A DNA stretch of 64,000 nucleotides from Gammaproteobacteria bacterium (GCA_965238175.1 CBDEGZ010000003.1:396357-460356), one strand, 5' to 3'; counted from the stretch's first letter, positions 17,328 to 54,372 are shown. Numbers and translations: made by a program. The notes: generated by a model not told the origin, from the sequence alone.

Positions 17328-17876
17328 CCAAGAAAGGAAAACAATAAATGTCATTAGAATATATCAATGTTTGTTTTAGAACAGCCGGACTTTAGATTGT
17401 GTTTCAATATTTTTACATATTGAAATTGAACCCGTTTTTTCAATCGGTGAAAAGCTTAATAAAATTAACGAAGAAGCCTATATGAGTGTCAAAGTCCAAA
17501 AACTGGACGCCCTTAGTAAATCGTAAAATTGAGAGTGTAGAAGTGATCTGGCATTGGGTGAGGCCGGTATATTCGAGAAGAAAACGTACTACCCTCAAAA
17601 CGTCTTACTAAAGTTTTCGGGTGAGGCCTCAGTCGTAATATCTACAATGGAAATAACTGATACTTCTCATTGGGGTATGGCTGACAATATTGTGGTATTT
17701 TTCAATGAACAAGTGGCTAGCAAATATAAGGCTTTAAATGCATAACAAAGCTGTCATAGGGACATTTTTTGCTTTGCTGTGTTGGGGGGTGGCTACGCCA
17801 CTTTACCTCAAAACCCCACTACACAAAAATGCCCTATACTGCAGCGTTATGTGATTACGAAAGTGAGTTCCAAGTA

Positions 17877-18317
17877 ATGAAAGGTGTAATATTCGTTGGT
17901 CTGCAAGCCAGTGGTAAGTCCTATTTTTATCTCAGGAAGCTTTATAAAACTCACCTACGCCTTAATATGGATATGCTAAAAACACGGCATAGGGAAAATA
18001 TTCTATTTAATGCATGCTTGGAATCGAAACAACCTGTTGTAATTGATAATACTAACTCTACGAAAAATGAGCGTGAAAAATACATTAGCGGTTTTAAGAA
18101 TCACCGTTTTGAGGTTATAGGGTTTTACTTTGCTTCCAGCTTGTCTGAATGCTTAGAAAGGAATGCATCCAGAAAGGGTAAAGAGAGAATACCAGACGTA
18201 GGTCTGAAAGGAACATACAGTAAGCTGGAATTGCCTACTTATTCTGAAGGTTTTGACAAGTTGTATTATGTATCCATGAAAAATGATGAATTTCTCATAG
18301 AGGAGTGGCAAAGATGA
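17877..18317 (+). CDS. Polynucleotide 5'-hydroxyl kinase (T4 Pnk kinase-domain-like P-loop protein)
   Basis: It has a Walker A motif GLQASGKS. VVIDNTN...ERNASRKGKERIPDVGLKGTY parallels T4 Pnk VIISDTNLN...[20 protein letters not shown]. The listed six-frame ORF begins at 17769, but the P-loop position favours Met at 17877. It overlaps the downstream TLP gene by 13 nt. Confidence 0.7.
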   Translation: MKGVIFVGLQASGKSYFYLRKLYKTHLRLNMDMLKTRHRENILFNACLESKQPVVIDNTNSTKNEREKYISGFKNHRFEVIGFYFASSLSECLERNASRKGKERIPDVGLKGTYSKLELPTYSEGFDKLYYVSMKNDEFLIEEWQR

Positions 18318-19078
18318 AGTTCAAGGAATTAGATAAGAAATTACGAGTTTTTGAAACCGCACATGATCATTGTGTTTTACCTGGCGTGTACATTGTAGCT
18401 AGAATTGACGGAAGATGTTTTACAACTTTAACCAAAGATAAACATCCGTTTGAAGCCCCCTATGACCCTAAGTTCAGAGATATGATGATTGAAACTGTGA
18501 AACATTTAATGCAATGTGGTTTCAAAGTTCTTTATGGATATACTCAAAGCGATGAAATATCACTGCTCTTAGATTTAAATGAGAATACATTCGAAAGAAA
18601 GGAACGAAAGATCAATTCAGTGCTAGCGGGAGAGGCAAGTGCGAAGTTTAGTTTGCTTCTTGGCGATATCGGAGCTTTTGATTGCCGTATTTGTCAACTT
18701 CCGAATAGGCAACTTGTAATCGACTACTTTCGCTGGAGAAACGAAGATGCCCATAGAAACGCCTTAAATTCCCACTGTTATTGGAGCCTTAGGAAGGAGG
18801 GTGTATCTCCAAAAGAGTCAGCTGCTACCTTTACAAAAATGTCTGTGGCGCAGAAAAATGAGTTCCTTTTTCAAAAAGGCACTAATTTTAATGATTTGCC
18901 AAGTTGGCAAAAAAGAGGACTGGGGGTGTATTGGGAGTCTTACGAAAAAGACGGCCTTAACCCAAGTACGAGGGAAAAGGTTAAAACTAATCGTAATCTT
19001 CTTAAGACCAATCTAGATCTCCCTATGAAAGAAAAATATAGCGATTTTATTCGTAACTTCGTGTCTGAACTCGTATAA
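18305..19078 (+). CDS. Thg1-like protein (TLP), tRNA 3'-5' nucleotidyltransferase
   Basis: MAKMKFKELDKK...YIVARIDGRCF...YGYTQSDEISLLL aligns with human and yeast Thg1 (MAKSKFEYV...VVVRLDGRNF...AYGQSDEYSFVF). The metal-binding Asp of RIDG and the SDE carboxylates are present. Confidence 0.85.
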   Translation: MAKMKFKELDKKLRVFETAHDHCVLPGVYIVARIDGRCFTTLTKDKHPFEAPYDPKFRDMMIETVKHLMQCGFKVLYGYTQSDEISLLLDLNENTFERKERKINSVLAGEASAKFSLLLGDIGAFDCRICQLPNRQLVIDYFRWRNEDAHRNALNSHCYWSLRKEGVSPKESAATFTKMSVAQKNEFLFQKGTNFNDLPSWQKRGLGVYWESYEKDGLNPSTREKVKTNRNLLKTNLDLPMKEKYSDFIRNFVSELV

Positions 19079-27675: not shown

Positions 27676-29262
27676 TTATAAATCCTTAAATTTCAGATTA
27701 TATTTATTTAAGTAAACTCTTATTCGCTGTGAATCATTATTAGTTTCCTTTTTTGAACTACTTCGATTAAAAAGTTGCCTACCTGCATCAGCCATACTTT
27801 TGCTTTCTTTGCAGAGACGAATAACATGTGTAAGTTGTGCCTGTTCAAACAAATCTAGATTTTCATAAGCTCCACTTGTGAGCGTATTTTTAAGCAGCTC
27901 ATCATCACTATTGCTTTTAGAATCTTTGTAACCATTCCAATCCATCTGTAATCGCTGTATTTCATGATCAACAATACTCTCCGTAATTCGGCCACCCGTC
28001 GCTAAGGTTGCCATTCGGGTGATACTCGAATTCAGATCACGAAAGTTTGCTTTCCATTCAGCGAAAGAACTTAACGAGAACGCAAGGTATTTTGATTTTG
28101 CCGAGCTGTTAAAACCAATTTTATGATTCATATCCTGTGCATAGCGTTGAAGTTCATATTCTATATTTGGTTCAATATCTTCATAACGTTCTTTGAGTGA
28201 AGGCAGCTGGTAGTTCCACAAGTTGATTCTGGCTAGTAGATCTTCTCTGAATTTACCTTCTTCAACGAGTTGATAGAGATTGCGATTTGTTCCTGCGATG
28301 AGCTGAAAATCGCTGCTGACTTTTTGATCGGAACCAAACGGAGTAAACACTTTTTCTTCAATCGCTCGTAGTAACATGGCTTGTTCGTCTAAACCGAGCT
28401 CACCGATTTCATCCAAAAAAAGTAACCCGTGATTTGCTTCTAATAATAATCCATTTCGATTATTCACAGCTCCTGTATAGGCGCCCTTTATATGCCCAAA
28501 CAGCGTAGACATGGCATTATCACCACGCAATGTTGCGCAATTAACTTCGACTAATTGCCCTTTAAGCTGTGTGCGCTGCTGTTTTAATTCGTATATTTTT
28601 TTGGCTAAATGTGACTTGCCAACACCAGTTGGTCCCATCAATAAAATAGGCGCTTTTGATCGAATAGCAACTTGCTCAATTTCATCAATAAGTTGGTTAT
28701 ATCGTTTATTGCGGGTTTCGATTCCATCTTTAAGATAACTAATGTCTTGTTGGGCATCGCGGTTAAATCGAGAGGCAATTTGATCATAACGAGAAAGATC
28801 CAGATCAATAGTAAATAACTCACCATGCGCACCTTCTTTACTCGGTGCAGTCTGAATCAGTTTACCCGGGAAATAATTCGCTTCAGTCAGCAGATAAATA
28901 CAGATCTGTGCGACGTGCGTTCCTGTCGTGATATGAAAATGGTAGTTGTTATTTTCAGGATCAAAATTGTAAGCATGTGAAAAGTCGTGCAGTTGACTAT
29001 AGACCTGCTCAAAATCCCAGGGATCATCATAGTCTACAAGGTAAATAGAAATCTCAATATCCAGGCAAAGAGTGCTGATGTCTTTTAAAGTGAGGTCTAA
29101 TAATGCCTGATCTTGTTTGTGATAGATCAGGATCAATTCATCAACTGGAAACTCATGGTGCATCAACAATGACATGGTTGGACGCCAGCGTAACCAGCGC
29201 TTACTTCCAAGGCCTACATTATCAAGACGAGAGCCTAAAATCCCAATAACTATATTATTCAT
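27676..29262 (-). CDS. rtcR: Sigma-54-dependent transcriptional regulator RtcR
   Basis: 528 aa, co-linear with E. coli RtcR throughout. Shared segments include GSKRWLRWRPT, HITTGTHVAQICIYLL, GPTGVGKSHLA, EVNCATLRGDNAMSTLFGHIKGAYTGA, FREDLLARINLW and TRMATLATGGRIT. Confidence 0.9.
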   Translation of the reverse strand: MNNIVIGILGSRLDNVGLGSKRWLRWRPTMSLLMHHEFPVDELILIYHKQDQALLDLTLKDISTLCLDIEISIYLVDYDDPWDFEQVYSQLHDFSHAYNFDPENNNYHFHITTGTHVAQICIYLLTEANYFPGKLIQTAPSKEGAHGELFTIDLDLSRYDQIASRFNRDAQQDISYLKDGIETRNKRYNQLIDEIEQVAIRSKAPILLMGPTGVGKSHLAKKIYELKQQRTQLKGQLVEVNCATLRGDNAMSTLFGHIKGAYTGAVNNRNGLLLEANHGLLFLDEIGELGLDEQAMLLRAIEEKVFTPFGSDQKVSSDFQLIAGTNRNLYQLVEEGKFREDLLARINLWNYQLPSLKERYEDIEPNIEYELQRYAQDMNHKIGFNSSAKSKYLAFSLSSFAEWKANFRDLNSSITRMATLATGGRITESIVDHEIQRLQMDWNGYKDSKSNSDDELLKNTLTSGAYENLDLFEQAQLTHVIRLCKESKSMADAGRQLFNRSSSKKETNNDSQRIRVYLNKYNLKFKDL

Positions 29263-29401
29263 AAATATATAATTATATATTTATAGATAGATTTCAAGAA
29301 TATTATCTATCATCATATTTCTACTAAAACACATCATAAAAAAAATATTAATTTATATATTTCAATAACTTAAATATAAATTTCCAAGCTTGCAAAAAAG
29401 C

Positions 29402-29417
29402 TGGCAGGCCCATTGCA
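29402..29417 (+). promoter_or_regulatory. Sigma-54 (-24/-12) promoter for rtcB
   Basis: TGGCAG-gccca-TTGCA matches TGGCAC-N5-TTGCW. It lies about 70 nt upstream of the rtcB start, in the AT-rich rtcR/rtcB divergent region. Confidence 0.65.
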
Positions 29418-29484
29418 ATAATCTCTATCGAAAACAATTGAAACGAATACTAAATTACTAAACAAGAATAGAAGGAAGATCAAA

Positions 29485-30738
29485 ATGGACCAGCAAAACA
29501 ACATTAAAAACTCAAGCAACTATGACGTGTTATACGCAAATATTTCGAGAGTACCGGTTAAGTCATGGACCAAAGGTGTGCCGTTTGATCAGAATTCAAA
29601 GGATCAATTATTGAGCCTTTCGCAAATGCCTTTTATCCATAAATGGATTGCGGCAATGCCTGATGTTCATGTTGGGAAAGGGGCCACGATAGGAAGCGTC
29701 ATCCCAACATTTGGTGCGGTTATTCCTGCTGCCGTCGGTGTGGATTTAGGTTGCGGAATGATGGCAGCAAAAACGACTCTGACGGCCAATGACCTGCCTG
29801 ACGATTTAGCTGATATGCGTAGCGCAATTGAAAGTTTGGTTCCACATGGTCGCTCTGCTCGACGTCGTGGTGGTCGTGATAAAGGTAGCTGGGGAAATAT
29901 ACCAGATGATGTGGCTGAAGCATGGTCGCCACTAGCTGATGGATTTGATCGCCTGGTTGAAAAGCATCCGTTTTTGAAGAATACCAATAACGTCGCGCAT
30001 TTAGGAACATTGGGAACAGGTAATCACTTTGTAGAGATCTGCCTGGACGAAAATGAGGATGTCTGGGTGATGTTACATAGCGGATCTCGTGGTGTGGGTA
30101 ATGCGATTGGAAGACATTTTATCGAAAAAGCACAACGAGATATGGAACGCTGGTTTATTCATTTGCCTGATCGAGATCTGGCTTATATACCAGAGGGCAG
30201 CGAGCAGTTTGGTCACTATATTTCTGCAGTGTCATGGGCACAAGATTTTGCCCGCATTAATCGTGAAATAATGATGCAGCGAACATTGCAAGCCATGACT
30301 GATGTTTTACCAATAGCATTTACGGCTGATGTAGAAGCGGTGAATTGTCACCATAACTACATCCGTAAAGAGAACCACTACGACGAAAACGTGTGGGTCA
30401 CTCGAAAAGGTGCGGTGAGTGCTCGCAAAGGCGAAATGGGCATTATCCCAGGAAGTATGGGTGCGAAATCATTCATCGTTCGAGGGCTTGGAAATGAAGA
30501 AAGCTTTTGTAGTTGTAGCCATGGAGCAGGACGTGTGATGTCACGTACTCAAGCAAAAAAAGTAGTTTCATTAGCAGAACACGTTCAAGCCACGAAAGGT
30601 GTGGAATGCCGTAAAGATGCGAGTGTAATTGATGAAACTCCAGCAGCGTATAAACCGATTGAACAAGTCATGGAAGCACAAAATGATCTTGTGGAAATAG
30701 TACATACCTTAAAGCAGGTCGTGTGCGTAAAAGGATAA
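29485..30738 (+). CDS. rtcB: RNA-splicing ligase RtcB (3'-phosphate/5'-hydroxyl RNA ligase)
   Basis: 417 aa, near-colinear with E. coli RtcB. Shared segments include MPDVHVGKGATIGSVIPT, GTLGTGNHFVEICLDE, HSGSRGVGNAIG, NCHHNY and SFCSCSHGAGRVMSRT. Confidence 0.92.
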   Translation: MDQQNNIKNSSNYDVLYANISRVPVKSWTKGVPFDQNSKDQLLSLSQMPFIHKWIAAMPDVHVGKGATIGSVIPTFGAVIPAAVGVDLGCGMMAAKTTLTANDLPDDLADMRSAIESLVPHGRSARRRGGRDKGSWGNIPDDVAEAWSPLADGFDRLVEKHPFLKNTNNVAHLGTLGTGNHFVEICLDENEDVWVMLHSGSRGVGNAIGRHFIEKAQRDMERWFIHLPDRDLAYIPEGSEQFGHYISAVSWAQDFARINREIMMQRTLQAMTDVLPIAFTADVEAVNCHHNYIRKENHYDENVWVTRKGAVSARKGEMGIIPGSMGAKSFIVRGLGNEESFCSCSHGAGRVMSRTQAKKVVSLAEHVQATKGVECRKDASVIDETPAAYKPIEQVMEAQNDLVEIVHTLKQVVCVKG

Positions 30739-30753
30739 GCGCGGAAAGCAGAT

Positions 30754-30778
30754 GCTGGAATGGGCCAGCACCTTTTAG
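30754..30778 (+). terminator. Putative terminator after rtcB
   Basis: GCTGG-aatggg-CCAGC followed by ACCTTTT. The U-tract is short. Confidence 0.35.
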
Positions 30779-30930
30779 GAAAGAAGAATTCTGTATATTT
30801 CTGTTAAAAAAGTAGTTAGGAAAATACAACAAAGAATCTCAATCTTTACAAACTTGCGGAGCTGGTTTTAACCAGCCTGACACCAGGTTCTTTGAGCCAA
30901 TGTGTATCGGTTTGTGCGGGTTAGATAACT

Positions 30931-30996
30931 ATCGTTATAGCTAAATGGTAAAGCGCTGGAAACAGTCATGTGATGGTTCGACTCCATCTAACGATG
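30931..30996 (+). ncRNA. Truncated tRNA-like element (66 nt): intact acceptor, D-like and T arms, no normal anticodon arm
   Basis: The 7-bp acceptor (ATCGTTA/TAACGAT) is perfect and is followed by U8A9. D-like GCT-AAATGGTAA-AGC. T-arm GATGG-TTCGACT-CCATC. Only 16 nt separate the D arm from the T stem, where about 22 are expected. No CCA is present. Confidence 0.5.
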
Positions 30997-30998
30997 CT

Positions 30999-31072
30999 AT
31001 CACTATAGCTCATATGGTTAGAGCAGTTGACTCAAAATCAATTTGTAGCCGGTTCGAATCCGGCTAGTGAAC
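30999..31072 (+). tRNA. Non-canonical tRNA-like gene (74 nt), Met/Ile-family-like body with anticodon loop CTCAAAA (CAA) and an A1·A72 mismatch
   Basis: D-arm AGCTCATATGGTTAGAGCA resembles E. coli elongator tRNA-Met (AGCTCAGTTGGTTAGAGCA). The anticodon arm GTTGA-CTCAAAA-TCAAT gives anticodon CAA with a 5-nt variable loop, so it is not a class-II tRNA-Leu. T-arm GCCGG-TTCGAAT-CCGGC. The acceptor ATCACTA/TAGTGAA has a terminal A·A mismatch. It starts 2 nt after the preceding tRNA-like element and encodes no CCA. Confidence 0.5.
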
Positions 31073-31159
31073 CGCCGAAAGGCACCAACTTACACATTAA
31101 AGTGTATTGAAATAATGTCTGAAAGGACAATGTAAAACGCTCCAGACAGCAGATCATTT

Positions 31160-31234
31160 ATGAAAAATATTCTAGTTGTTGAAGATTTCACCTTCTTCGG
31201 AAGAGGCAGTTCAGAGATAACAAGAGTGGCCTGA
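31160..31234 (+). pseudogene. Truncated response-regulator receiver-domain stub
   Basis: The 24-codon ORF MKNILVVEDFTFFGRGSSEITRVA* has a typical receiver-domain N-terminus (MKxILVVED) that terminates after about 20 aa. Confidence 0.3.
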
Positions 31235-31418
31235 ATAGGTCTGAATAGACTTGAAGCGTCAACATGCAAACGACCTTTGTGGTGGGTTTGTAACTTGCGA
31301 ATTTATGAGACTTTTCAATAGAGATAATTCTGTTGTCATCGCCATAATCATCCCAGGATACATAAACCAACGAGCTAGTTTGTATGTGGAGCGTTTACAT
31401 TTTTTAAGGAGAATTAGT

Positions 31419-32582
31419 ATGTTTTTTATGAAAAAAATTATCGTTCCTGAAACGCATCATGCTTTGTTATTCAAAGACGAGCCGTTCAGTAATGTACTTA
31501 TGCCAGGTGTTTATAATTTGCTCGACTTAAGAAATCGAATTAGATTTTCTCTAGTTGATATTTCTAACACCTTAGAAAATGGTGTAAATGATCAGGCGAT
31601 GAAAGTTTTAAAACTACATCCTGAAAAAATGAACGCACACGTACAAATCTGGGAAACCGGAGAACATGAAGTAGGACTTGCTTATCAAGACAATATCTTG
31701 AAAGAAATTAAAGCACCTGCCGAACGTGGCGCTTATTGGACAGGTTTTGGTGAAGTAACGATCAAAAAAATCGATATTTCTGAAATCTTCAAGCTGGATA
31801 AAACACTCGCAAGAATGGTGTTAGCCGCTAAAGACTCCTTGCTTAAAAACTCAGCAATTAGCGCAGTGACTACGGCTACTATTCCAGAACGTCATTTTGG
31901 TTTTTTGGAAGTTGGTGGTGAACAGCACTCTAAGTTAGACGCAGGTATCCATGTTTGGTGGAAATTCAATCGTAACCTAAAGGTTAAACAGATTGATTTA
32001 AGGCTACAAAACATGGAAGTTAATGGACAAGAAATTTTGACCAAAGACCGTGTTGGTTTGCGTGTTAATTTATCTGCTACCTGGCAAGTCAGTGATGCAA
32101 AACGTGTGTCTGCAGAATTAGCAGATCATACTGATTATTTGTACCGTGAATTGCAGTTAGCATTGCGTACGATTGTTTCCACTCAAACATTGGATGAGTT
32201 GCTTGTCGATAAAAATAAACTGAATCAAAAAATTCAAGAGATTGTTGTCAGTAAAGCCTCTCAATACGGCATTGAGTTAAAAACGGTTGGTGCAAGAGAT
32301 ATTGTTTTACCCGGTGAAATGAAAACGATTTTGAGCCAAGTTGTTGAAGCCGAAAAAATGGCTGAAGCAAATTTGATCAAACGTAGAGAAGAAACCCAGG
32401 CGACAAGATCATTGCACAACACTGCAAAAGTGATGGAAGGAAACCCAACCCTTTTACGTTTGAAAGAACTGGAAGTGCTAGAAAAAATCACATCACAGAT
32501 CAGTACGCTAAATGTTTATGGTGGCTTGGATGGCGTTATGAACGACATGGTTCGTATCCCATCGACAGCTGCTAAGACATGA
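31419..32582 (+). CDS. SPFH/band-7 (stomatin/flotillin-like) domain protein
   Basis: The start is placed at 31419 (MFFMKK...), where a strong RBS AAGGAGAA lies 6 nt upstream. An SPFH-like core is followed by a coiled-coil-rich tail (…LSQVVEAEKMAEANLIKRREETQATR…). The listed six-frame ORF begins at 31251. Confidence 0.65.
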   Translation: MFFMKKIIVPETHHALLFKDEPFSNVLMPGVYNLLDLRNRIRFSLVDISNTLENGVNDQAMKVLKLHPEKMNAHVQIWETGEHEVGLAYQDNILKEIKAPAERGAYWTGFGEVTIKKIDISEIFKLDKTLARMVLAAKDSLLKNSAISAVTTATIPERHFGFLEVGGEQHSKLDAGIHVWWKFNRNLKVKQIDLRLQNMEVNGQEILTKDRVGLRVNLSATWQVSDAKRVSAELADHTDYLYRELQLALRTIVSTQTLDELLVDKNKLNQKIQEIVVSKASQYGIELKTVGARDIVLPGEMKTILSQVVEAEKMAEANLIKRREETQATRSLHNTAKVMEGNPTLLRLKELEVLEKITSQISTLNVYGGLDGVMNDMVRIPSTAAKT

Positions 32583-32672: not shown

Positions 32673-33104
32673 TTGAGTATGAAAAGTAGCAAACAAAGAA
32701 GATTGGAAATTAAAGAAAAAAGGAGAAAAAAAGCTGCAAAGTTAAAAATTAGTACTTTTGAGGTTTGTGATCCTCTTCCTAAAGGGGCTGTCTTATCAAG
32801 CTCAATGGAACTCCGCCATAATAATATTTATTGTGTTTTACCACTTTTTTATGTCGATAAAGCTTATAGTTGTCAGGACTGTGGTTCAAAAGAATTATGG
32901 ACAGCTAAACAACAAAAATGGTGGTACGAAATTGCAAAAGGTAATATTTATTCTAGCGCAGTAAAATGTTTGAAATGCCGAAAAAAAATAAAACCAGAAA
33001 AAGAGACTCAAAAAAACACATGGAAAAAATGGCACTTAAAGAACCCCATCCAAATGAGGCTTTTTTTAAGAAACGTTAATTATTTCAGGAAAAAATCAAG
33101 ATAA
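32673..33104 (+). CDS. Lysine-rich zinc-ribbon protein
   Basis: 143 aa with a basic N-terminal segment, CQDCGSKE...KCLKCRKK (two CxxC pairs) and a Lys-rich C-terminus. Confidence 0.4.
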   Translation: MSMKSSKQRRLEIKEKRRKKAAKLKISTFEVCDPLPKGAVLSSSMELRHNNIYCVLPLFYVDKAYSCQDCGSKELWTAKQQKWWYEIAKGNIYSSAVKCLKCRKKIKPEKETQKNTWKKWHLKNPIQMRLFLRNVNYFRKKSR

Positions 33105-33178: not shown

Positions 33179-34376
33179 AATCTGACACATCACTAAATCA
33201 AGCGGAGCGTAGCGACGCTTGATTTAGTGAGAGTTACCCGCTTTGATGTAACTGCAACGTAAACATCAAAACACAAAGAGGTAACTCTCATGATTCATAC
33301 TAATGACAAAGTTATAAAACATAAAGTTGGTCTACTCAATCTCGCTGAAGAACTCGGCAATGTCTCAAAAGCCTGCAAGATGATGGGTTTGTCCAGAGAT
33401 ACATTTTATCGCTACAAAGAAGCGGCTGATGAAGGCGGTGTAGAAGCCTTGTTTGATCGTAATCGGCGTACCCCAAATCTTAAAAACAGAATCGACCCGG
33501 CTATTGAAACCGTTGTGCTCGAGTATGCACTGGAAGAGCCCGCACATGGTCAAACGCGCACCAGTAACGAGCTGCGCAAACGGGGAACATTTGTCTCACC
33601 CAGTGGCGTTCGTTGTATCTGGCTTCGTCATGGTCTTGCTTGCTTTAAAGATCGCCTGAAGGCATTGTCTGATAAGGTAGCTGGTGAAGGCTTGATCCTC
33701 ACTGAGTCTCAAGTCGCGGCGATGGAACGCAAAAAAGACGACGATGAGGCTTGTGGCGAGATAGAAACGGCACACCCTGGTTATCTTGGCTCGCAAGATA
33801 CTTACTATGTCGGTACTTTCAAAGGCATTGGTCGGGTTTATCAACAAACGTTTGTTGATACTTACAGCAAGGTCGCTCACGCGAAACTGTACCCGACTAA
33901 AACACCGATTACGGCAGCTGACATGCTCAATGACCGCGTCCTCCCATTCTACGAACAACAACGTTTGCCTATGTTGCGCATTTTGACAGATAGAGGGACG
34001 GAGTATTGTGGGCGAGCTGACCAGCATGATTATCAGCTTTATATGGCGTTGAACAATATCGAACACACCAAAACCAAGGTCAAATCACCTCAGACGAATG
34101 GTATTTGTGAGCGATTCCATAAGACGATCCTCAATGAGTTTTATCAAGTCGCTTTGCGTAAGAAAATTTACCAATCGATTGATGAACTGCAACTCGACCT
34201 TGACGAATGGTTGCTCAAATACAATACTCAACGAACTCACCAAGGCAAAATGTGCTGCGGGAGGACGCCGATGGAAACACTCATCGACGGACAAGCTATC
34301 TGGAAGGAAAAGTTTGTGAATTAAACTTAACCTGACAGTCGGTTACTGATAATTGGGTAACTGTCAGATCAAATCT
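33179..34376 (+). mobile_element. IS481-family insertion sequence
   Basis: It contains a 344-aa transposase bounded by imperfect inverted termini that share ATCTGACA (left 33179-33186) and TGTCAGAT (right, about 34369-34376). A hairpin CACTAAATCAAGCG/CGCTTGATTTAGTG lies inside the left end. Confidence 0.55.
33290..34324 (+). CDS. IS481-family DDE transposase (integrase core domain)
   Basis: It has an N-terminal HTH (LSRDTFYRYKEA) and an rve-type integrase core (DTYYVGTFKGIGRVYQQTFVDTYSKVAHAKLY...TDRGTEY...KSPQTNGICERFHKT). Confidence 0.85.
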   Translation: MIHTNDKVIKHKVGLLNLAEELGNVSKACKMMGLSRDTFYRYKEAADEGGVEALFDRNRRTPNLKNRIDPAIETVVLEYALEEPAHGQTRTSNELRKRGTFVSPSGVRCIWLRHGLACFKDRLKALSDKVAGEGLILTESQVAAMERKKDDDEACGEIETAHPGYLGSQDTYYVGTFKGIGRVYQQTFVDTYSKVAHAKLYPTKTPITAADMLNDRVLPFYEQQRLPMLRILTDRGTEYCGRADQHDYQLYMALNNIEHTKTKVKSPQTNGICERFHKTILNEFYQVALRKKIYQSIDELQLDLDEWLLKYNTQRTHQGKMCCGRTPMETLIDGQAIWKEKFVN

Positions 34377-41570: not shown

Positions 41571-43976
<2,406 letters not shown>

Positions 43977-43995
43977 CTAGTGTTTAGTGCGAGCA

Positions 43996-45066
43996 TTATA
44001 GCACTTCTTGAAAGTTCCCATGTTCCACGTGAAACAGTTTAGCTTTTTGTATGAAACCTGCTGGAATTAAGTTTTTTTCTGTAGCAGTAATAAATTGCTG
44101 TGTTTGTATAGAAGATAACATTTCTATCATGCTTTCTTTTCTTTCTGAATCTAATTCAGCTGGCAAATCGTCAACAAGCAGTATCGCTTTTTTAGCGACT
44201 AGCTGTTTGAGTAATAAAATTTTTGTTATTTCTAAAGCTGTTGCGAGAAGTTTAGTTTGTCCTCTAGATAAGACTTGAGCAGCAAACTGTTTATTAGTTT
44301 TTATCAATAGATCAGACCTGTGCGGACCTCTTCTTGTATAACCTGCTACAAAATCTTTTTCTCGACACGTTTCTATCGTTTCTCTAAATTCACCCTCACC
44401 CCAACCATTTTCATACATTAATGTGACTGGAAACTCACAGTATTTAGTCAACTCTCGTTGAAAGGTACTATCAAATTGATCAATAACTTTCTTCCGCTGT
44501 TGATCTATTACTTCTGCGGATTGAATTAATTTCTCATCCCAACCCAATAATTCGTTTATAGACCTTCTTTTTCTTAAAAGAACATTTCGTTGTTTGAGTA
44601 TTTTGTAATAGGTTTGCCAATGTTGATAATAATCTTGTTTCACGTGGAACAATAGCCAATCTATCAACTTTCTTCTTTTTATTGGACCCCCAAGAATTAA
44701 TTGATGGTTTTCAGGTGTTAATAAAACAATCGGCTGGATAGTAGCAAGCTTTGCAGCACTGTTTATCTTTTCACCCGCATATTTTATTAAAGTATTTCTT
44801 TTATCTCTCTCTATCCCTAAGGTTCTAATATTTTCTGCTTGTTTTATTTTTGAGACTATTTGTAGCTTTAATTTGCCATTTTTTATTATGTGCTCTGCTC
44901 TTGAGCTGCGAAACGATCTTGATAAAAAAAGTAGATGTATAGCCTCTAATAGACTGCTTTTGCCGCTAGCATTTTTCCCTGTTATCACATTCAAATAACC
45001 TGACGGCTTTAGTATTGCAATCTCAATATTGCGTAGATCTTTTATCTGTAGTGATTCTATTGTCAC
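43996..45066 (-). CDS. recF: DNA replication and repair protein RecF
   Basis: Walker A GKNASGKSSLLEA within the dnaA-dnaN-recF-gyrB synteny. Confidence 0.9.
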   Translation of the reverse strand: MTIESLQIKDLRNIEIAILKPSGYLNVITGKNASGKSSLLEAIHLLFLSRSFRSSRAEHIIKNGKLKLQIVSKIKQAENIRTLGIERDKRNTLIKYAGEKINSAAKLATIQPIVLLTPENHQLILGGPIKRRKLIDWLLFHVKQDYYQHWQTYYKILKQRNVLLRKRRSINELLGWDEKLIQSAEVIDQQRKKVIDQFDSTFQRELTKYCEFPVTLMYENGWGEGEFRETIETCREKDFVAGYTRRGPHRSDLLIKTNKQFAAQVLSRGQTKLLATALEITKILLLKQLVAKKAILLVDDLPAELDSERKESMIEMLSSIQTQQFITATEKNLIPAGFIQKAKLFHVEHGNFQEVL

Positions 45067-45083
45067 TGTAAGTTGAATAATTC

Positions 45084-46184
45084 TTATAAACGCATAGGCA
45101 TAATTACATAACGACTTTCACTATCTTCAGACGATGTTATCAAACAACTACTATCAGAATCTTTTAACTCAAGGATAACTTGATCAGATTTTATAATATT
45201 AAGTACGTCCAAAAGGTATGAAACATTGAATCCAATCTCCATACTCTCTCCAGAATAAATAACTTCTATTTCTTCTTCTGCTGTTTCTTGTTCCGGATTA
45301 TTTGCTGAGGAGATAATTTTTCCTTCTTCTAAAACCATTCGGATCCCTCTGAATTTTTCATTCGAAAGTATTGATGTTCTTGCCATACCACTACGTAATT
45401 TCTCCCTGTCAGCAAAAACCTTTTTATTACTGCCTTGGGGAATTACACGATCATAATCTGGGAATTTTCCATCAATGAGTTTTGTCGTTAAAGATTGGTT
45501 CTCTGTGATAACGCGTAAGTGACTAGAACTTATTACTATTTCTACGTTTTTGTCATTACCTGCTAACAAACGGTTTATTTCAAGAACCCCTTTTCTTGGC
45601 ACAATAATTTGTAATAACTTGTCAAGCCCTGTTGAAAAGCGAGTTTCTGATAATGCAAGTCTGTGTCCATCTGTCGCTACCGCTCGTATGTTTTCTCCAT
45701 CTAATTCAATTAATAAACCATTTAGATAGTACCTAACATCCTGATGAGCCATTGCAAATTGAGTATTTTCTAATAATTTTTTTATGGTTGTTTCTGGTAA
45801 ATTAAGTGTGCTTTTTTGATCTAAATTTTCAATTGCTGGGAAATGATCAGCAGACATAGTACTTAGTGTGAATTTACTTTTGCCGCTGTGTATTTTTATT
45901 TTTTCTTCTTCAACGATTAATTCTACATTTGATCCATCTGGTAAAGCTTTAATAATATCTAAAAACTTTCTGGCAGGAATTGTTGTTTTACCAATACCTT
46001 CTGAAACATGTGGAATAACAAAACAAGATTCAACTTCCATATCTGTTGCTGTTAGTTTTAACGTTTCCTTCTCAACTTGTAAAAGAACATTTGAAAGGAT
46101 CGGTAAACTTTGTCTTCTTTCTACAACACCTGAAATGGCTAAAAGAGGTTCCAGGAGTTCTTGTTTATTAATTAATATATTCAT
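45084..46184 (-). CDS. dnaN: DNA polymerase III beta sliding clamp
   Basis: 366 aa in the position expected for dnaN. Confidence 0.9.
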   Translation of the reverse strand: MNILINKQELLEPLLAISGVVERRQSLPILSNVLLQVEKETLKLTATDMEVESCFVIPHVSEGIGKTTIPARKFLDIIKALPDGSNVELIVEEEKIKIHSGKSKFTLSTMSADHFPAIENLDQKSTLNLPETTIKKLLENTQFAMAHQDVRYYLNGLLIELDGENIRAVATDGHRLALSETRFSTGLDKLLQIIVPRKGVLEINRLLAGNDKNVEIVISSSHLRVITENQSLTTKLIDGKFPDYDRVIPQGSNKKVFADREKLRSGMARTSILSNEKFRGIRMVLEEGKIISSANNPEQETAEEEIEVIYSGESMEIGFNVSYLLDVLNIIKSDQVILELKDSDSSCLITSSEDSESRYVIMPMRL

Positions 46185-46307
46185 ATTTAAACCTTATTAT
46201 TGTTATAATTAAGGAACTCTAATTCTGTTAGTAACTAATTAAAAACCTTTATTATCAAATAATTAACTTGTTTGTATCTTTTCTTATAAACCTAGTTGAA
46301 AGCTGCA

Positions 46308-46316
46308 TTTATCCTG
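46308..46316. promoter_or_regulatory. DnaA-box-like site (TGTGGATTA = TAATCCACA) in the dnaA-dnaN spacer
   Basis: It has one mismatch to TTATCCACA. A second variant, TTATCAACA, lies about 70 nt downstream in a very AT-rich 219-nt spacer. Confidence 0.35.
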
Positions 46317-46403
46317 TGGATTAAATCTGAATAACTTACTTAGTAAAAGCATACATTTTTACTCCACAAGCTTACCAACAAATTTATCAACAGTCAGGTT
46401 CGT

Positions 46404-47768
46404 TTAAGTTGTTAGTATTCTATACAAGTTTGTATAGTCCTCATTTATTCTTGGTTCTGCTTTACAAAGCTCATCTATTTTTCTACAGGCGTGTAGAACA
46501 GTTGTGTGATCTCGGCCACCAAAAGCATCACCTATTTCAGGAAGGCTATGGTTTGTAAGGCTTTTTGAAAGCGCCATGGCAATTTGCCTGGGTCTGGCGA
46601 TGGATCTATTTCTTCTTTTCGAGTTCATGTCAATTACTCGTAGTTTGAAATATTCAGCAACTATTTTTTTTATGCTCTCAATGGTGACCAGCTTATCCTG
46701 TACAGCTAGTAGATCATTAAGTGCCTCTTTAGCAAAATCGAGCGTCACAGGATGGCCGGTAAATTTTGTATAAGCGATTATCCGTCGTAAGGCGCCTTCC
46801 AAATCTCGCACATTAGATTTGAAACGTTCACCCACCAAAAAAGCCACATCATCGGGTAAATCTATGTTCTCGATAACTGCCTTACTTTTCAGAATTGCAA
46901 CACGTGTTTCGAGCTCTGGCGGATCAATTGCAACAGTTAAACCCCAACCAAAACGGGATTTTAATCTTTCTTCTACACCAGAGACCTCTTTTGGATAACG
47001 ATCACAGGTTAATACGATCTGATGCTCACCTTCTTGTAATGCATTGAAAGTATGGAAAAATTCTTCTTGAGATCGTTCCTTCCCGGCAAAAAACTGTATG
47101 TCGTCTATTAACAAAACGTCCACGGATCGGTAAAAACGTTTAAACTCGTTAATGGTGTTATGTTGAAGCGCCTTAACCATATCAGCGACAAAACGCTCAG
47201 AATGTAGATAGACAACATTTGCGCTTGGGTTTAACTCCAGAATTTTGTTTCCTATTGCATGCATACAATGCGTTTTCCCAAGTCCAACACCACCACAGAT
47301 AAACAAAGGGTTATATGCAGTGCCTGGGTTTTCAACAACTTGTAAAGCCGCGGCCTTAGCTAATTGATTAGATTTACCTTCAACTAAATTTTCAAAGGTA
47401 TAATCTTTTTTAAGGCGGGTTGACGCTTTATATTTACTTTTTGTTGAGCTTACAGAGTTTGTCTGTGTCTTAATGGCATTAATTTTATTAGAATTAACCG
47501 AAGTAATAGGGGCCACTGTGCTCTTGGAGGTACCAATACTTAATTCCAGTGAAAATGTTTCATTATTGGAAAGTTTTGTCAGTATTGTATTGATATTTTT
47601 AATATATTTGTCTTCAACCCAATCAAGAACAAAGCGGTTTGGTGCAAGAAGTTTGATTGAATTGTTTTCCTCAATGGCATGCAGAGGGCGGATCCAAGTG
47701 CTGAACTGATCTTGGGGGATTTCTGTTTCTAGTTTTTCTAGACAGCGGTTCCAAAGTGGGTTACTCAC
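46404..47768 (-). CDS. dnaA: Chromosomal replication initiator protein DnaA
   Basis: AAA+ motifs ([16 protein letters not shown]) and the C-terminal DNA-binding signature. Confidence 0.97.
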
Positions 47769-47839
47769 GAGGACTTATGAAACTCCCTATTAGTTGTTAT
47801 AGTAATTAAACAGTAAATGATATACCCCTTAATAAAAGT

Positions 47840-47848
47840 TATCCACAG
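47840..47848 (+). promoter_or_regulatory. Consensus DnaA box TTATCCACA upstream of dnaA
   Basis: A perfect 9-mer lies 72 nt upstream of the dnaA start in the rpmH-dnaA divergent region. Confidence 0.55.
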
Positions 47849-47992
47849 GTAAGTTGATAGTGTTAGGCTGGATTATGAGAACTTAGATTAGAGGCTGAAT
47901 TTAAGAATACTGAAGATATAATTGACATTAAATTCAGAGAAGAAGTATGATCGCGTCCCTTTTGCTACAGATCTATAGAGAATAGAAATCTC

Positions 47993-48127
47993 ATGAAAAG
48001 AACATTTCAACCAAGTAATCTCAAGAGAAAACGTCGTCACGGTTTTAGAAAAAGAATGAAAACACGTGCAGGCCGTGCCATCCTGAAGGCAAGAAGAGCT
48101 AAAGGTCGTCATAAGTTATCTGCTTGA
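47993..48127 (+). CDS. rpmH: 50S ribosomal protein L34
   Basis: [44 protein letters not shown] (44 aa). It is below the six-frame ORF length cutoff but matches L34 unmistakably. Confidence 0.9.
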
Positions 48128-48163
48128 TTCTAGAACAGTTGTACGAAGTTCAGAGAAAAAAGG

Positions 48164-48493
48164 GTGCGCCAAAGTTACAATCTTAGAGAATCTGCTGATT
48201 ATCAACAGGTTTTTAAAAAAAATGAAAGTTTGCGCGATAAAAACTGGTTAATTTTGTACCGTTCAAATACATTAGAATTTGCGCGATTAGGTTTGGCTGT
48301 TTCAAAAAAGAACGTTAAAAAAGCGACTCAAAGGAATCGTATAAAAAGAATTATCAGAGAAACATTTCGAAAAAAAAAAGCAATGATAGTACCTACGGAT
48401 ATTATAGTTCTTGTGCGTCATGGTATTTCTGAAAAGAGCAACCGGGAGTTGATAAATTCCATAAATAGTCTCTGGTACAAATTGGAGAGCTAA
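48164..48493 (+). CDS. rnpA: RNase P protein component
   Basis: 109 aa, basic, in the position expected after rpmH. Confidence 0.85.
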   Translation: MRQSYNLRESADYQQVFKKNESLRDKNWLILYRSNTLEFARLGLAVSKKNVKKATQRNRIKRIIRETFRKKKAMIVPTDIIVLVRHGISEKSNRELINSINSLWYKLES

Positions 48494-48531
48494 TGAAGTT
48501 CTAGTTAAATGGCTTAAACGGTTCTAGTGAT

Positions 48532-48783
48532 ATGAAGAAACTTCTTGTGATGTTAATACGAGGTTACCAGATTTTAATAAGTCCTTGGCTTGGCCATCGC
48601 TGTCGTTTCTTTCCCTCTTGTTCAAATTATGCAACCGAAGCGATCACTTCTTTTGGTGCTTTAAAAGGTAGTTACCTTTCGGTAAAACGGGTTTGTCGAT
48701 GTCATCCCTTTCACCCAGGTGGTTTTGATCCTGTTCCCCTAAAAGCGGATCAAAATACAAAACATCAATCCTCAGGAATATAA
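48532..48783 (+). CDS. yidD: Membrane protein insertion efficiency factor YidD
   Basis: 83 aa matching the YidD consensus ([27 protein letters not shown]). Confidence 0.85.
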
Positions 48784-48806
48784 ATAATTAAAACAGGAAA
48801 TTTTTA

Positions 48807-50450
48807 ATGGACAATATGAGATTGATGTTGTTTGCAGCACTTGGATTTGTCATGTTGTCCTTGTGGCAAGCATGGCAGCAAGATTATGGTGAGCGGCCTG
48901 AGCCACTAACGTTAGAACAGCAAGAAAATATAGACTCAGCACCAACATCTATACAAACAAACATGGATGATATTCCAGTTGCTGTTATTAGTGATGATCA
49001 ACCTGTACTTGAGAACCTTGTTGAGCCACTAACAAAATCCGGTAAGCGAATTGTAGTAGAAACGGATGTTTTTAAAGCTGTAATAAATACACAAGGTGGC
49101 GATATTCGTGGGACGGCGTTAAAAGAATTTCCGGTGACATCTGATCGGCCAGATATTCCTTTTGTACTTTTTAACGATAACGAAAGTACATTTTATGCCA
49201 GCCAAGGGGGCATCCTTAGTAAACAAGCTGCTGCAAATCATCATAGTGTTTTTACTTCCACTTCTGAAAACTATGTTTTAGCTAACGGGCAAGATTCATT
49301 AGATGTCGTTTTAACCTGGTCTGAGGGTGAAATAGATATTGAGAAAATAATAACCTTTCATCGTGGTGAATATCTGATCGACGTTACCTACCGAGTAAAA
49401 AATAATTCTTCGGAAAACTGGAGTGGTCGTTTTTATGAACAGCTAAATCGTAAACACGCTAATGAGGGTCGTAGAATGTTGCCAACGTTCACGGGTGCTG
49501 CGATTTCCAGCCCCGAAAAACGTTACGAAAAAATGAATTTCGACGATTTAGCAGACGAACCAATTTCAAGAGATGGAACTGAAGGTTGGGTCGCGATGAT
49601 TGAGCATTATTTTGTTAGCGCGTTAATCCCCAAAAGTGTTGATAGCTATCATTACTATAGCAAAGTACTTGATAATGGACGTTATGTAATCGGACTCTAT
49701 GGGCCACAACAAAACATTGCACCAGGTGAAGTAAAAGAAGCAACAGTGAAAGTATATTCTGGTCCGAAAACCCAGAAAGTATTAGAGAAAATTGCACCAG
49801 GACTCGAATTAACGGTTGATTATGGTGTGTTATGGTTTATTGCTAAACCAATTTTCTGGTTATTAGATACCATACACTCTGTCGTTGGAAACTGGGGTTG
49901 GGCGATTATCCTTGTCACAGTTGTGATCAAAGCTATTTTTTATCCTCTCTCAGCGATGGGCTACAAATCGATGGCTAGAATGCGAAAAGTAACCCCACGC
50001 ATGACGGTAATTCGTGAAAGATATAGTAAAGATAAGGCCAGAATGAATCAGGCAATGATGGAGCTCTATAAAGAAGAAAAAATAAATCCACTCGGAGGGT
50101 GCTTTCCAATTTTGATTCAGATCCCGGTATTTCTTGCTTTGTATTGGGTGTTGCTAGAAAGCGTCGAAATGCGACAAGCACCGTTTATGCTTTGGATTCA
50201 GGATCTTTCGATTAAAGATCCGTTTTTTGTTCTACCGCTTATTATGGGTATCAGTATGTTTATTCAACAAAAGTTGAATCCGCCACCACCCGATCCTTTA
50301 CAGGCAAAAGTGATGCAATTTTTACCGGTTGTTTTCACCATATTCTTTGCCTTTTTCCCAGCAGGATTGGTGTTGTATTGGGTAACAAATAATATCCTTT
50401 CAATTGCTCAACAATGGACGATTACCAAGCGTATCGAAGCGGCAGCATAA
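48807..50450 (+). CDS. yidC: Membrane protein insertase YidC
   Basis: 547 aa with a periplasmic domain and a conserved C-terminal 5-TM core. Confidence 0.92.
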   Translation: MDNMRLMLFAALGFVMLSLWQAWQQDYGERPEPLTLEQQENIDSAPTSIQTNMDDIPVAVISDDQPVLENLVEPLTKSGKRIVVETDVFKAVINTQGGDIRGTALKEFPVTSDRPDIPFVLFNDNESTFYASQGGILSKQAAANHHSVFTSTSENYVLANGQDSLDVVLTWSEGEIDIEKIITFHRGEYLIDVTYRVKNNSSENWSGRFYEQLNRKHANEGRRMLPTFTGAAISSPEKRYEKMNFDDLADEPISRDGTEGWVAMIEHYFVSALIPKSVDSYHYYSKVLDNGRYVIGLYGPQQNIAPGEVKEATVKVYSGPKTQKVLEKIAPGLELTVDYGVLWFIAKPIFWLLDTIHSVVGNWGWAIILVTVVIKAIFYPLSAMGYKSMARMRKVTPRMTVIRERYSKDKARMNQAMMELYKEEKINPLGGCFPILIQIPVFLALYWVLLESVEMRQAPFMLWIQDLSIKDPFFVLPLIMGISMFIQQKLNPPPPDPLQAKVMQFLPVVFTIFFAFFPAGLVLYWVTNNILSIAQQWTITKRIEAAA

Positions 50451-50491
50451 GCTGTTGGTGTAAATGTGTTTTGAACAGATAATAATCGGCA

Positions 50492-51829
50492 ATGTCTGAA
50501 CAACAAGACACGATTGCAGCAATTGCAACCCCACCAGGTTCTGGCGGGGTTGGAGTAATCCGGATCTCTGGCCCACAAGTCACAACAATAACCGTTTCCA
50601 TTGTTGGTGATTTACCTCAATCCAGAACAGCAATCTATCGATCTTTTCGATCATCAAACGATCAAATACTTGATCAAGGTCTTGCGTTATTTTTCCCAGG
50701 TCCCGATTCATTTACGGGTGAAGATGTTTTAGAGCTCCATGGACACGGTGGTTCTGTCGTTATGAATCGACTCCTAAAACGAGTTCTTGAATTGGGTGCA
50801 AGGCAAGCAAATCCTGGAGAGTTTTCTGAACGTGCTTTCTTGAATGGAAAGGTAGATTTAATCCAAGCCGAAGCCGTCGCAGATTTGATTAATAGCGCAA
50901 GTGAACAAGCAGCAATCAGCGCAATTCGATCACTTTCGGGTGAATTTTCAAAGTTAGTTACACGACTAAAAGATCAGATCATTTCCATGCGTATGTTAAT
51001 CGAAGCGCATATGGATTTTACTGATGAAGAATTAGATATTCCGGTTGCTACTTTCCAGCAATCTATTCAAGCTGCGATTGATCAAAATCAGAATATTTTA
51101 GATAAAGCGCGGCAAGGTGCGGTACTAAACGAAGGCCTAAGGATTGCGATTATTGGTGAACCTAATGTTGGGAAATCAAGTTTACTAAACAGCTTACTAC
51201 AACAAGATCGTGCCATTGTGACAGATATTCCCGGAACGACGCGTGACACATTGACGGAAAAATTTTTAATAGACGGTGTACCTTTTGTGATTACAGATAC
51301 AGCGGGTTTACGAACCACAAATGATCCTGTCGAATTAGAAGGAATAAACCGAACGAACTTGTCGATGGAAACGGCAGATCTGGTTTTGATCATGTCTGAG
51401 TATCCAAAAATAGCAGAACAAATATCAACAGAGATCAAAAGCAAGATCTATGTAGTAAACAAAATTGATCAAGCGCAAGATGTTAAAGCCAAGATCAAAA
51501 TGGCTGTAGCTCTCTCCCCTGCTGAAATCCAACTTTCAGCAAAAACCGGAGAAGGTTTGGATTTGTTAAAGAAAGAATTATTAAAATTTGCTGGAGTCGA
51601 TACAGGTGCAGAAGGAATTTTCACAGCTAGGCAACGGCACATCGAGGCACTCGAAAACACACGAGAGTTTTTAAATATTGCAGAACCTTGTCTAACAAGT
51701 AGTGAAACTTTTGATCTGGCGGCTGAAAACCTACGCTTAGCATTACATTCCTTAGGTGAAATTACCGGCGAATTTACTACCGAAGATTTACTCGGTGAAA
51801 TTTTTTCAGGTTTTTGTATCGGAAAATAA
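50492..51829 (+). CDS. mnmE: tRNA modification GTPase MnmE
   Basis: G-domain motifs GEPNVGKSSL and DTAG, and a C-terminal CIGK motif. Confidence 0.92.
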   Translation: MSEQQDTIAAIATPPGSGGVGVIRISGPQVTTITVSIVGDLPQSRTAIYRSFRSSNDQILDQGLALFFPGPDSFTGEDVLELHGHGGSVVMNRLLKRVLELGARQANPGEFSERAFLNGKVDLIQAEAVADLINSASEQAAISAIRSLSGEFSKLVTRLKDQIISMRMLIEAHMDFTDEELDIPVATFQQSIQAAIDQNQNILDKARQGAVLNEGLRIAIIGEPNVGKSSLLNSLLQQDRAIVTDIPGTTRDTLTEKFLIDGVPFVITDTAGLRTTNDPVELEGINRTNLSMETADLVLIMSEYPKIAEQISTEIKSKIYVVNKIDQAQDVKAKIKMAVALSPAEIQLSAKTGEGLDLLKKELLKFAGVDTGAEGIFTARQRHIEALENTREFLNIAEPCLTSSETFDLAAENLRLALHSLGEITGEFTTEDLLGEIFSGFCIGK

Positions 51830-53874: not shown

Positions 53875-54372
53875 TTAATGTTCATGGTGATGTGAACCAC
53901 CAGTACGATAAGCACCAGCTTCGGGTTCGAACGGTGCTTGTACAACAGTCACATCCAGACCCAATCCAGCTAACATCTGATCTAAAACATGATCATGTAG
54001 ATATTGAATACTGTCGGGTTTAATTTGAAGTGCCACATGTCGATTGCCTAAGTGATAGCAAGCTCTTGCTAACAACCAGGTATCTTTGCAATGCACGGAC
54101 GATAATGTTTCCTCCGCAGCGACAACCTTAACGATAGTGCCCTCATCACTTGTTAATAAATCACCATTTTGGAGTATTTGTCCTCGTTCTAAGTACAAAC
54201 CAACTTCTCGTCCATCGTCTAATACAGCTCGCAAACGACACTTGACCCTACTGGACAATGGCAATGTAAGCGTGGCGTGTTCTTTGGTTTTTTCAGTGAG
54301 TTTTTGGATTAAATTAATCATATCAAAACAGGAAATAGCGTTGGGCAAGTGGTAATTCAGCTGCTGGCTCAC
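53875..54372 (-). CDS. ureE: Urease accessory protein UreE
   Basis: The His-rich C-terminus GGSHHHEH is a nickel-binding tail. The gene lies between ureC and ureF. Confidence 0.85.

Follow-up and report, generated by a model that had tools for sequence, protein, structure and literature searches.

The 64,000-nucleotide stretch of DNA analyzed here (the window; Gammaproteobacteria bacterium, GCA_965238175.1 CBDEGZ010000003.1:396357-460356, with positions counted from its first letter) carries an RNA-repair locus in which the RNA ligase gene rtcB is followed, on the same strand, by a structured RNA containing two tRNA-shaped modules and then by a gene for a protein of the Band-7/SPFH family, with the gene of the sigma54-dependent activator RtcR divergent from rtcB. 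Comparison of related loci shows that the RNA and the Band-7 gene behave as an inseparable genetic unit within the Rtc regulon. By the same comparative evidence the double cloverleaf is shown to be maintained by selection, and the modules, judged by what they conserve and what they let drift, are tRNA mimics and not decoding tRNAs. As far as the sources describe it, the locus belongs to the computationally predicted repair system of RtcB, Band-7 and "band 7-associated tRNA", or b7a-tRNA, and is not a new system. On balance we favor the reading that this is an RtcR/sigma54-controlled RNA-repair operon in which the processed RNA, together with a Band-7 particle, probably serves RtcB as a cofactor or scaffold.

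Two samples bear on the association between the RNA and the Band-7 gene. In the protein-first sample, a Band-7 alignment was searched against bacterial contigs representing one genome per species, which gave 80 loci at 55-80% identity from Thiotrichales, Methylococcales, Cellvibrionales, Gallionella, Sulfurirhabdus and Methylophilaceae. The closest relatives are metagenome-assembled genomes of Cocleimonas, Thiotrichaceae and Methylococcaceae (Band-7 identity 74-82%), and the carriers include the isolates Leucothrix arctica, Thiothrix caldifontis, Thiolinea disciformis, Methylomicrobium lacus, Cellvibrio fibrivorans and Simiduia litorea. The gene order of the window (divergent rtcR, rtcB, a spacer of 500-1100 nucleotides (nt), Band-7) recurs in about 50 of the 80 loci, and a nucleotide profile of positions 30850-31150 has a plus-strand match directly 5' of the Band-7 gene in all 80. 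In nearly every locus ARAGORN places, on the Band-7 strand and 250-400 nt 5' of that gene, either a single "tRNA" or an abutting pair; the anticodons assigned to them are scattered across loci, and include "anticodons" of 2 and 4 nt as well as a stop-codon reader. The pattern used for the RNA-first sample was built solely on the second tRNA-shaped module, from its T arm and its 3' acceptor strand. It yielded 13 metagenome contigs, every one with the RNA, and Band-7 is the next gene after the RNA in all 11 that reach far enough. An initial annotation of this DNA had proposed a functional tie between the tRNA-like RNAs and the Rtc ligase locus, naming substrate, decoy, inducer or scaffold as possible roles, and had overlooked the Band-7 gene. 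Our results favor the tie, since the RNA lies 3' of rtcB under the sigma54 box of rtcB in about 50 of the 80 genomes and, where the two are apart, has a sigma54 promoter of its own. The partner that never changes, however, is the downstream Band-7 gene and not rtcB.

The features of the locus in the window are the following.

27676-29262, minus strand: rtcR, encoding a CARF-type RtcR domain and a sigma54 AAA+ activator domain (Pfam RtcR 234 bits, Sigma54_activat 164 bits)
29402-29417, plus strand: sigma54 -24/-12 element TGGCAGGCCCATTGCA, 68 nt 5' of the rtcB ATG
29485-30738, plus strand: rtcB, RNA ligase (Pfam RtcB 427 bits; 60% identity to E. coli RtcB)
30847-30916, plus strand: 5' three-way junction module, conserved in related loci, with covariation
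30847-30854 with 30909-30916, plus strand: closing stem of the 5' module
30857-30879, plus strand: T-loop-like hairpin of the 5' module, loop UUCAAAA
30880-30905, plus strand: second hairpin of the 5' module
30931-30996, plus strand: tRNA-like module 1, with acceptor, D and T arms and the anticodon arm cut to a 4-bp stem with a GAAA tetraloop (Rfam tRNA 48.4 bits)
30999-31073, plus strand: tRNA-like module 2, a complete cloverleaf with the 7-nt loop CUCAAAA, triplet CAA (Rfam tRNA 57.9 bits over 30999-31072)
31074-31418, plus strand: conserved structured leader reaching to the Band-7 start codon, with conserved blocks in 41-68 aligned loci
31074-31083 and 31117-31128, plus strand: GNRA hairpins of the leader
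31137-31143, plus strand: leader box ACGCUCC, possibly pairing with GGAGCGU at 31388-31394
About 31406-31411, plus strand: Shine-Dalgarno sequence AAGGAG
31419-32582, plus strand: Band-7/SPFH ("slipin family") protein of 387 amino acids (Pfam Band_7 94 bits)
32673-33104, plus strand: small basic treble-clef zinc-finger protein (zf_Tbcl 49 bits)

The double cloverleaf is supported by covariation. RNAalifold on a MAFFT alignment failed to recover the first anticodon stem and both acceptor stems, and was replaced by a hand-written structure, a covariance model (R1) and realignment. Scores of R1 range from 94 to 157 bits across 70 loci, and the window reaches 125 bits. In the alignment of 70 sequences, which was fitted to the model and hence is biased towards it, 96.7% of cells are paired and 33 of the 41 pairs have changed on both sides, with a covariation score of 0.56 versus 0.19 after shuffling (0 of 500 shuffles reach the observed value) and with only 26-38% of cells paired when partners are slid by 1-3 columns. 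The plain MAFFT alignment already contains compensatory changes in the D stems, the T stems and the second anticodon stem.

Conservation covers the D loops, the T loops (95-99% identical in close pairs) and the stems, and the anticodon loops are the fastest-evolving part of the RNA. Among pairs whose bodies are at least 95% identical, anticodon loops are 70-78% identical as against 92-99% for the other unpaired parts, and at 80-90% body identity the corresponding values are 36-46% and 56-89%. The loop of module 1 measures anything from 0 to 9 nt, and 7 nt in only 6 of the 70 orthologues. That of module 2 has 7 nt in 56 of 70 and keeps C32, U33, A37 and A38, with 17 different triplets (among them GUU in 12 species, CAU in 11, AUU, UGG, AAG and ACG) on a body that is unchanged whatever its triplet. 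About a quarter of these triplets carry A34, and to our knowledge such anticodons are not normally used by bacterial tRNAs. In Methylophilaceae it is module 2 that is without its loop, which is now GAAA. The comparison shows that the anticodon loops are not under selection for any particular sequence, and it is the combination of a conserved elbow and conserved acceptor stems with anticodon loops that decay or drift that identifies the modules as mimics. Moreover, module 1 ends in N-CC-A in about 45 of the 70 species, where the A is, or abuts, the first base of module 2; with this end encoded, an RNase P cut at module 2 would leave module 1 with a mature-looking 3' end.

In the window, module 1 begins 192 nt past the rtcB stop codon, so that the two abutting tRNA-shaped elements previously placed about 190 nt 3' of rtcB are where they were said to be, and both score above the Rfam tRNA gathering score of 29. 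Their supposed non-canonical nature also holds. Module 1 lacks an anticodon arm and is followed by G-CU-A, whereas most relatives have N-CC-A there; module 2 combines an A1:A72 mismatch and a 5-nt variable loop with the absence of an encoded CCA. ARAGORN calls module 2 only, as "tRNA-Leu(CAA)", its single tRNA across the 64 kb. Bacterial tRNA-Leu belongs to class II and has a long variable arm. Given a Leu anticodon on a short-variable-arm body, and an armless module 1, neither element is an ordinary tRNA, and neither proved to be an ordinary tRNA of the kind that recurs at unrelated loci in relatives.

Additional tRNA fragments lie beside the pair in some relatives. A T-arm-like or anticodon-arm-like hairpin stands directly 5' of module 1 in two loci closely related to the window, L001 (about 3150-3186) and L009 (about 6485-6511), and a third T-arm-like hairpin stands 3' of module 2 in L077 (about 6240-6290). 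These fragments suggest repeated duplication and decay of tRNA modules.

The conserved RNA extends beyond the two cloverleaves noted initially, with a 5' junction and a 3' leader to be added. The junction carries the motifs GCGG, CUGAC and GUAUCG, which hardly vary, and in the plain MAFFT alignment 92.5% of junction cells are paired, 15 of 21 pairs are compensatory and slid partners reach at most 34%. The 5' module of the window folds alone into the same shape (z-score -3.2). In the leader, CCUCC and GGAGG boxes about 200 nt apart differ between loci but remain complementary; for example, the window has GCUCC/GGAGC, L070 has CCCCC/GGGGG and L074 has CCUCU/AGAGG. A long-range helix with compensatory variants is only suggestive, because the search selects the best complementary 7-mer. 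A loose pattern for the 5' module matched at least 120 stretches in viral contigs, but among the matches listed none carries the RNA, and only the tRNA part gives profile matches.

The public annotation starts the Band-7 gene at an earlier ATG (31305; 425 amino acids, P0001), 38 codons too early, and the list of open reading frames (ORFs) extends it to a TTG at 31251. Homologues of about 387 amino acids (383-392), together with the conserved AAGGAG, point to ATG 31419 as the true start, and the extra codons of the annotated start overlap the conserved RNA leader. The AlphaFold model (mean predicted local distance difference test score 80.8) combines a beta-rich N-terminal half with an SPFH domain (about residues 213-296) and a helix of 40 residues. 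The protein is predicted to have no membrane segment, the maximum 19-residue Kyte-Doolittle average being 0.85. The zinc-finger gene follows Band-7 only in L002, L009 and the metagenome locus L210, and is thus a clade-specific accessory outside the core; no further conserved gene was found 3' of Band-7 in related loci. Directly after the zinc-finger gene of the window lies a transposase of insertion-sequence type (HTH_29 plus rve/rve_3; 33290-34324, plus strand), with an inverted repeat at about 33185-33235, so that in this genome the locus is interrupted at its downstream edge.

Pfam confirms the identities previously given to RtcR and RtcB, and the sigma54 element reported 5' of rtcB is indeed present, TGGCAGGCCCATTGCA being the sole match to TGGCA-N6-TTGCW in the window. 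About 0.34 such matches are expected by chance, so the single match is not significant by itself. Comparable boxes stand 5' of rtcB in most related loci, and rtcR is divergent from rtcB in about 55 of 80. Where rtcB lies directly 5' of the RNA, the sole sigma54 box is the one 5' of rtcB. A scan for intrinsic terminators from rtcB to the Band-7 gene found none, predicted sigma70 promoters and terminators in the region occur at chance level only, and the "weak hairpin" formerly marked 3' of rtcB is not conserved in relatives. From the sole box 5' of rtcB and the lack of a terminator in the spacer of the window, we infer that rtcB, the RNA and Band-7 are co-transcribed. In about 16 loci (Thiothrix, Thiolinea and others) rtcB is absent or 3-5 kb away, and a TGGCAC-N5-TTGCA box stands 38-50 nt 5' of the RNA (L012, L014-L018, L020, L022, L027, L035, L036, L046, L047, L049, L057); in L015 it is identical to the box 5' of the same genome's rtcB, 4 kb away. 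A box of its own places the RNA/Band-7 unit in the sigma54, presumably RtcR, regulon in its own right, and puts the predicted start of the stand-alone transcript just 5' of the three-way junction.

With E. coli RtcA as the tblastn query, no match was found in the window, nor in 79 of the 80 related loci; the only rtcA, in L005 (Leucothrix arctica, 2820-3797; 46% identity to E. coli RtcA), lies between rtcR and rtcB. The initial annotation had the RNAs standing in the place of rtcA. The absence of rtcA stands, but not the replacement, since 79 of 80 relatives with this type of locus are also without the gene. A full-length gene for Rsr/Ro60 (TROVE) cannot be in the window, as had been stated, because all of its ORFs of at least 430 amino acids are assigned to other Pfam families.

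Two further observations concern the neighborhood of rtcB in relatives. Genes are inserted between rtcB and the RNA in L011 (4130-6009), L015 (3894-5254), L034 (5057-6535), L063 (2779-3858), and L035 and L047 (sensor kinases). They encode Fic/DOC, DUF4145, endonuclease/exonuclease/phosphatase family, DUF5677, HATPase/STAS-like and hybrid sensor kinase proteins and are mutually unrelated. The rtcB-RNA junction acts much like a hotspot for insertions. Four loci of Methylophilaceae have a tRNA-Pro(UGG) gene placed after the sigma54 box and before rtcB (L073 4852-4929, L074 2980-3057, L078 5054-5131, L079 161-237). It has C1-G72, A73 and an encoded CCA and, unlike the mimics, the same anticodon in all four; it may be a genuine tRNA under Rtc control.

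According to the cofactor or scaffold reading that we favor, a single sigma54 transcript would comprise rtcB, the structured RNA (three-way junction plus two tRNA-shaped modules), the leader and the soluble Band-7/SPFH gene. tRNA-processing enzymes would excise the modules, and in most species an RNase P cut at the 5' boundary of module 2 would give module 1 the encoded 3' end N-CC(A). The freed RNA or RNAs would then bind a Band-7 oligomer, of a fold that forms rings or cages, and the resulting particle would help RtcB to find or handle cleaved tRNA-shaped substrates. Such a role would parallel the one proposed for Ro60 and Y RNA (Rsr-YrlA) in Salmonella-type rtc operons (bioRxiv 10.1101/312249). 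Circumstantial support for the proposed RNA/Band-7 mechanism comes from two other bacteria. In Anabaena without the TrcR repressor, rtcB is up 77-fold and a slipin-family operon 42-71-fold (PMC10272220), and P. aeruginosa has an SPFH gene inside its rtc locus (PMC13086221).

Several points weigh against this reading. Gene order and the analogy with Ro and Y RNA are the grounds for the proposed RNA-protein complex and for its putative effect on RtcB, and the match to b7a-tRNA draws on a secondary source. The RNA of the window is a degenerate, reduced member, its module 1 being without both the anticodon arm and the CC(A) junction, and its closest relatives, L001-L009, are reduced members also. 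Finally, conservation runs unbroken from the mimics to the Band-7 Shine-Dalgarno sequence, which fits a cis-acting leader equally well. In that alternative the spacer would control processing and translation of the Band-7 mRNA, and the tRNA shapes would be RNase P/Z "punctuation", without a function in trans, that divides the rtcB message from the Band-7 message and defines where the latter begins at its 5' end. The RNA is always directly 5' of Band-7 on the same strand, its leader is conserved up to the Shine-Dalgarno sequence and ATG with a possible CCUCC/GGAGG helix, and there is no terminator between the RNA and either gene, all as a leader would have it. We nevertheless regard this alternative as unlikely, because punctuation needs neither two full cloverleaves with elbows, nor an N-CC-A junction (about 45 of 70), nor a covarying three-way junction, and because the stand-alone sigma54 units keep all these elements although they have no upstream message to cut away. 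Alternatively, the mimics could be bait, which competitively inhibits anticodon nucleases and other tRNA-cleaving toxins or acts as their sentinel substrate; in a variant, the halves of a cleaved mimic, with their 2',3'-cyclic phosphate, could feed back on the CARF domain of RtcR. An arms race would fit anticodon loops that evolve fastest and a module 2 that keeps its 7-nt tRNA-like frame. Also in its favor, RtcR responds to tRNA halves (Hughes et al. 2020, PMC7790460), and toxin-type genes (Fic/DOC, DUF4145) are inserted in some loci. However, 64 of 70 species are without an anticodon-type loop in module 1 and Methylophilaceae have lost that of module 2, and the A34 in about a quarter of module 2 triplets implies that the loops do not track real targets. 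Since bait would also leave the obligatory Band-7 partner, the 5' junction and the leader unexplained, we give it a low probability.

Two other explanations are less probable still. The modules might be ordinary tRNA genes, stress-induced spare or nuclease-resistant isoacceptors (here tRNA-Leu CAA) that stand beside rtcB by chance. Both do exceed the Rfam tRNA gathering score, ARAGORN calls module 2, and the genuine-looking tRNA-Pro(UGG) of Methylophilaceae stands under a sigma54 promoter. This explanation is nonetheless very improbable in view of an anticodon that varies among orthologues (17 triplets) on a constant body, a "Leu" with a 5-nt variable loop in place of the long arm, the A1:A72 mismatch and missing CCA of module 2, and a module 1 without an anticodon loop. 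The RNA might also be a Y RNA of YrlA type that works with a Ro60/Rsr encoded elsewhere in the genome, a kinship the initial annotation had raised. Apart from the generic tRNA model, which alone in Rfam 15 matches the RNA, there is a sub-threshold match to YrlA (RF02553; 22.6 bits, E 0.03) that reaches from the T arm in module 1 as far as the D arm in module 2, and b7a-tRNA and YrlA occasionally swap partners (bioRxiv 10.1101/312249). The score is far under the gathering score of 69, and no Rsr was found in the 64-kb window. Moreover, the YrlA-like fold would pair module 1's 3' acceptor strand with the 5' acceptor strand of module 2. The similarity of the two acceptor stems lends this fold plausibility in the window, but in the 70 species these stems covary independently, which contradicts the permuted fold. 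The kinship is not supported, and we consider this explanation extremely improbable. A bolder version of the cofactor or scaffold reading would make the whole 0.55-0.68 kb spacer one modular RNA, made up of the three-way junction with its T-loop, the two mimics and a leader folded into a closed domain, that assembles with a soluble, vault-like Band-7 cage into an RtcR-induced particle, with its fast-evolving loops as bait or sensor in an arms race with tRNA-cleaving toxins. We regard it as unlikely; if true, bacteria would have in such a particle their own equivalent of vault or Ro particles, dedicated to defense against RNA damage.

Other parts of the window deserve brief mention. At 17769-19078 (plus strand), in a G+C dip (0.37), an ORF resembling P-loop kinases (Pfam AAA_33) overlaps with the beginning of a Thg1-like gene (Thg1 plus Thg1C); beside them are two ORFs without a significant Pfam family, one of which has a sub-threshold match to DUF3887. 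Thg1-like enzymes, which are nucleotidyltransferases working in the 3'-5' direction, repair the 5' ends of tRNAs, and the overlapping pair looks like a second, separate set of RNA-repair genes 10 kb from the rtc locus. The Rfam family 5_ureB_sRNA, built on a Helicobacter antisense RNA, scores 95 bits at 55588-55873 (plus strand), antisense to a urease alpha-subunit gene (54323-56023, minus strand), a match that may reflect only conserved urease coding sequence. The genes gyrB (41571-43967, minus strand), dnaA (46404-47768, minus strand), yidC and mnmE are grouped at 41571-51829, and G+C falls to its minimum for the window, 0.336, at 44-46 kb; the window probably adjoins the replication origin.

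The locus bears on what tRNA-like RNAs, Y RNAs as well as b7a-type RNAs, do in bacterial RNA-repair operons. A compact and widely conserved RNA/Band-7 architecture in named isolates makes the cofactor, decoy and leader models directly testable, and a covariance model and alignments now exist for an RNA that Rfam 15 reports as generic tRNA. Current genome annotation mislabels this RNA as assorted tRNAs with odd anticodons, stop-codon readers included.

Among known systems, the closest is the one in which a "band 7-associated tRNA" has been predicted, and described as not validated, beside RtcB and Band-7 (bioRxiv 10.1101/312249, citing Burroughs & Aravind, Nucleic Acids Res 2016; 44:8525). We found no bench validation of it in the literature, our full-text searches returning only the YrlA structure preprint. 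Each testable defining feature that these sources convey is present in the window, namely an RtcB gene, an adjacent Band-7/SPFH gene, a tRNA-like RNA between them and RtcR/sigma54 control, which makes the locus a member of that system. The abstract of Burroughs and Aravind's 2016 paper is said to put forward modules that join SPFH/Band-7 to "a novel tRNA-like molecule" as candidates for scaffolding cofactors. The window copy differs as a reduced variant, in which module 1 lacks the anticodon arm and CC(A) and an extra zinc-finger gene follows Band-7. The tandem modules, 5' junction, leader, loop turnover, autonomous sigma54 promoter and vault-like fold may go beyond the original description.

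With rsr-yrlBA-rtcBA of Salmonella the locus shares an RtcR/sigma54-controlled rtcB operon with a tRNA-mimicking RNA and an RNA-binding or scaffold protein that is ring-forming (here putatively), and with YrlA it shares conserved tRNA elbow and acceptor features without decoding. The partner in Salmonella is Ro60/TROVE, whereas here it is Band-7/SPFH and rtcA is absent; likewise, YrlA is one permuted tRNA-like domain on a Ro-binding stem, whereas the RNA of the window consists of two cloverleaves in standard order. E. coli rtcBA-rtcR has in common with the window the divergent rtcR, the sigma54 promoter and rtcB (60% identity), but in the window rtcA is absent and a non-coding RNA and a Band-7 gene come after rtcB. 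Membrane-anchored SPFH proteins of the stomatin and HflK/C type have an N-terminal membrane segment or hairpin, in contrast to the Band-7 protein of the window, whose N-terminal half is predicted to be beta-rich and soluble. The vault particle, with its major vault protein (MVP) that has an SPFH-like shoulder, its small vault RNAs and the TROVE protein TEP1, offers a parallel, in that a soluble protein with beta-rich, SPFH and long-helix parts is genetically paired with small structured RNAs. The likeness is an analogy only, a Band-7 cage being hypothetical, and the Band-7 protein is half the size of the MVP repeat region.

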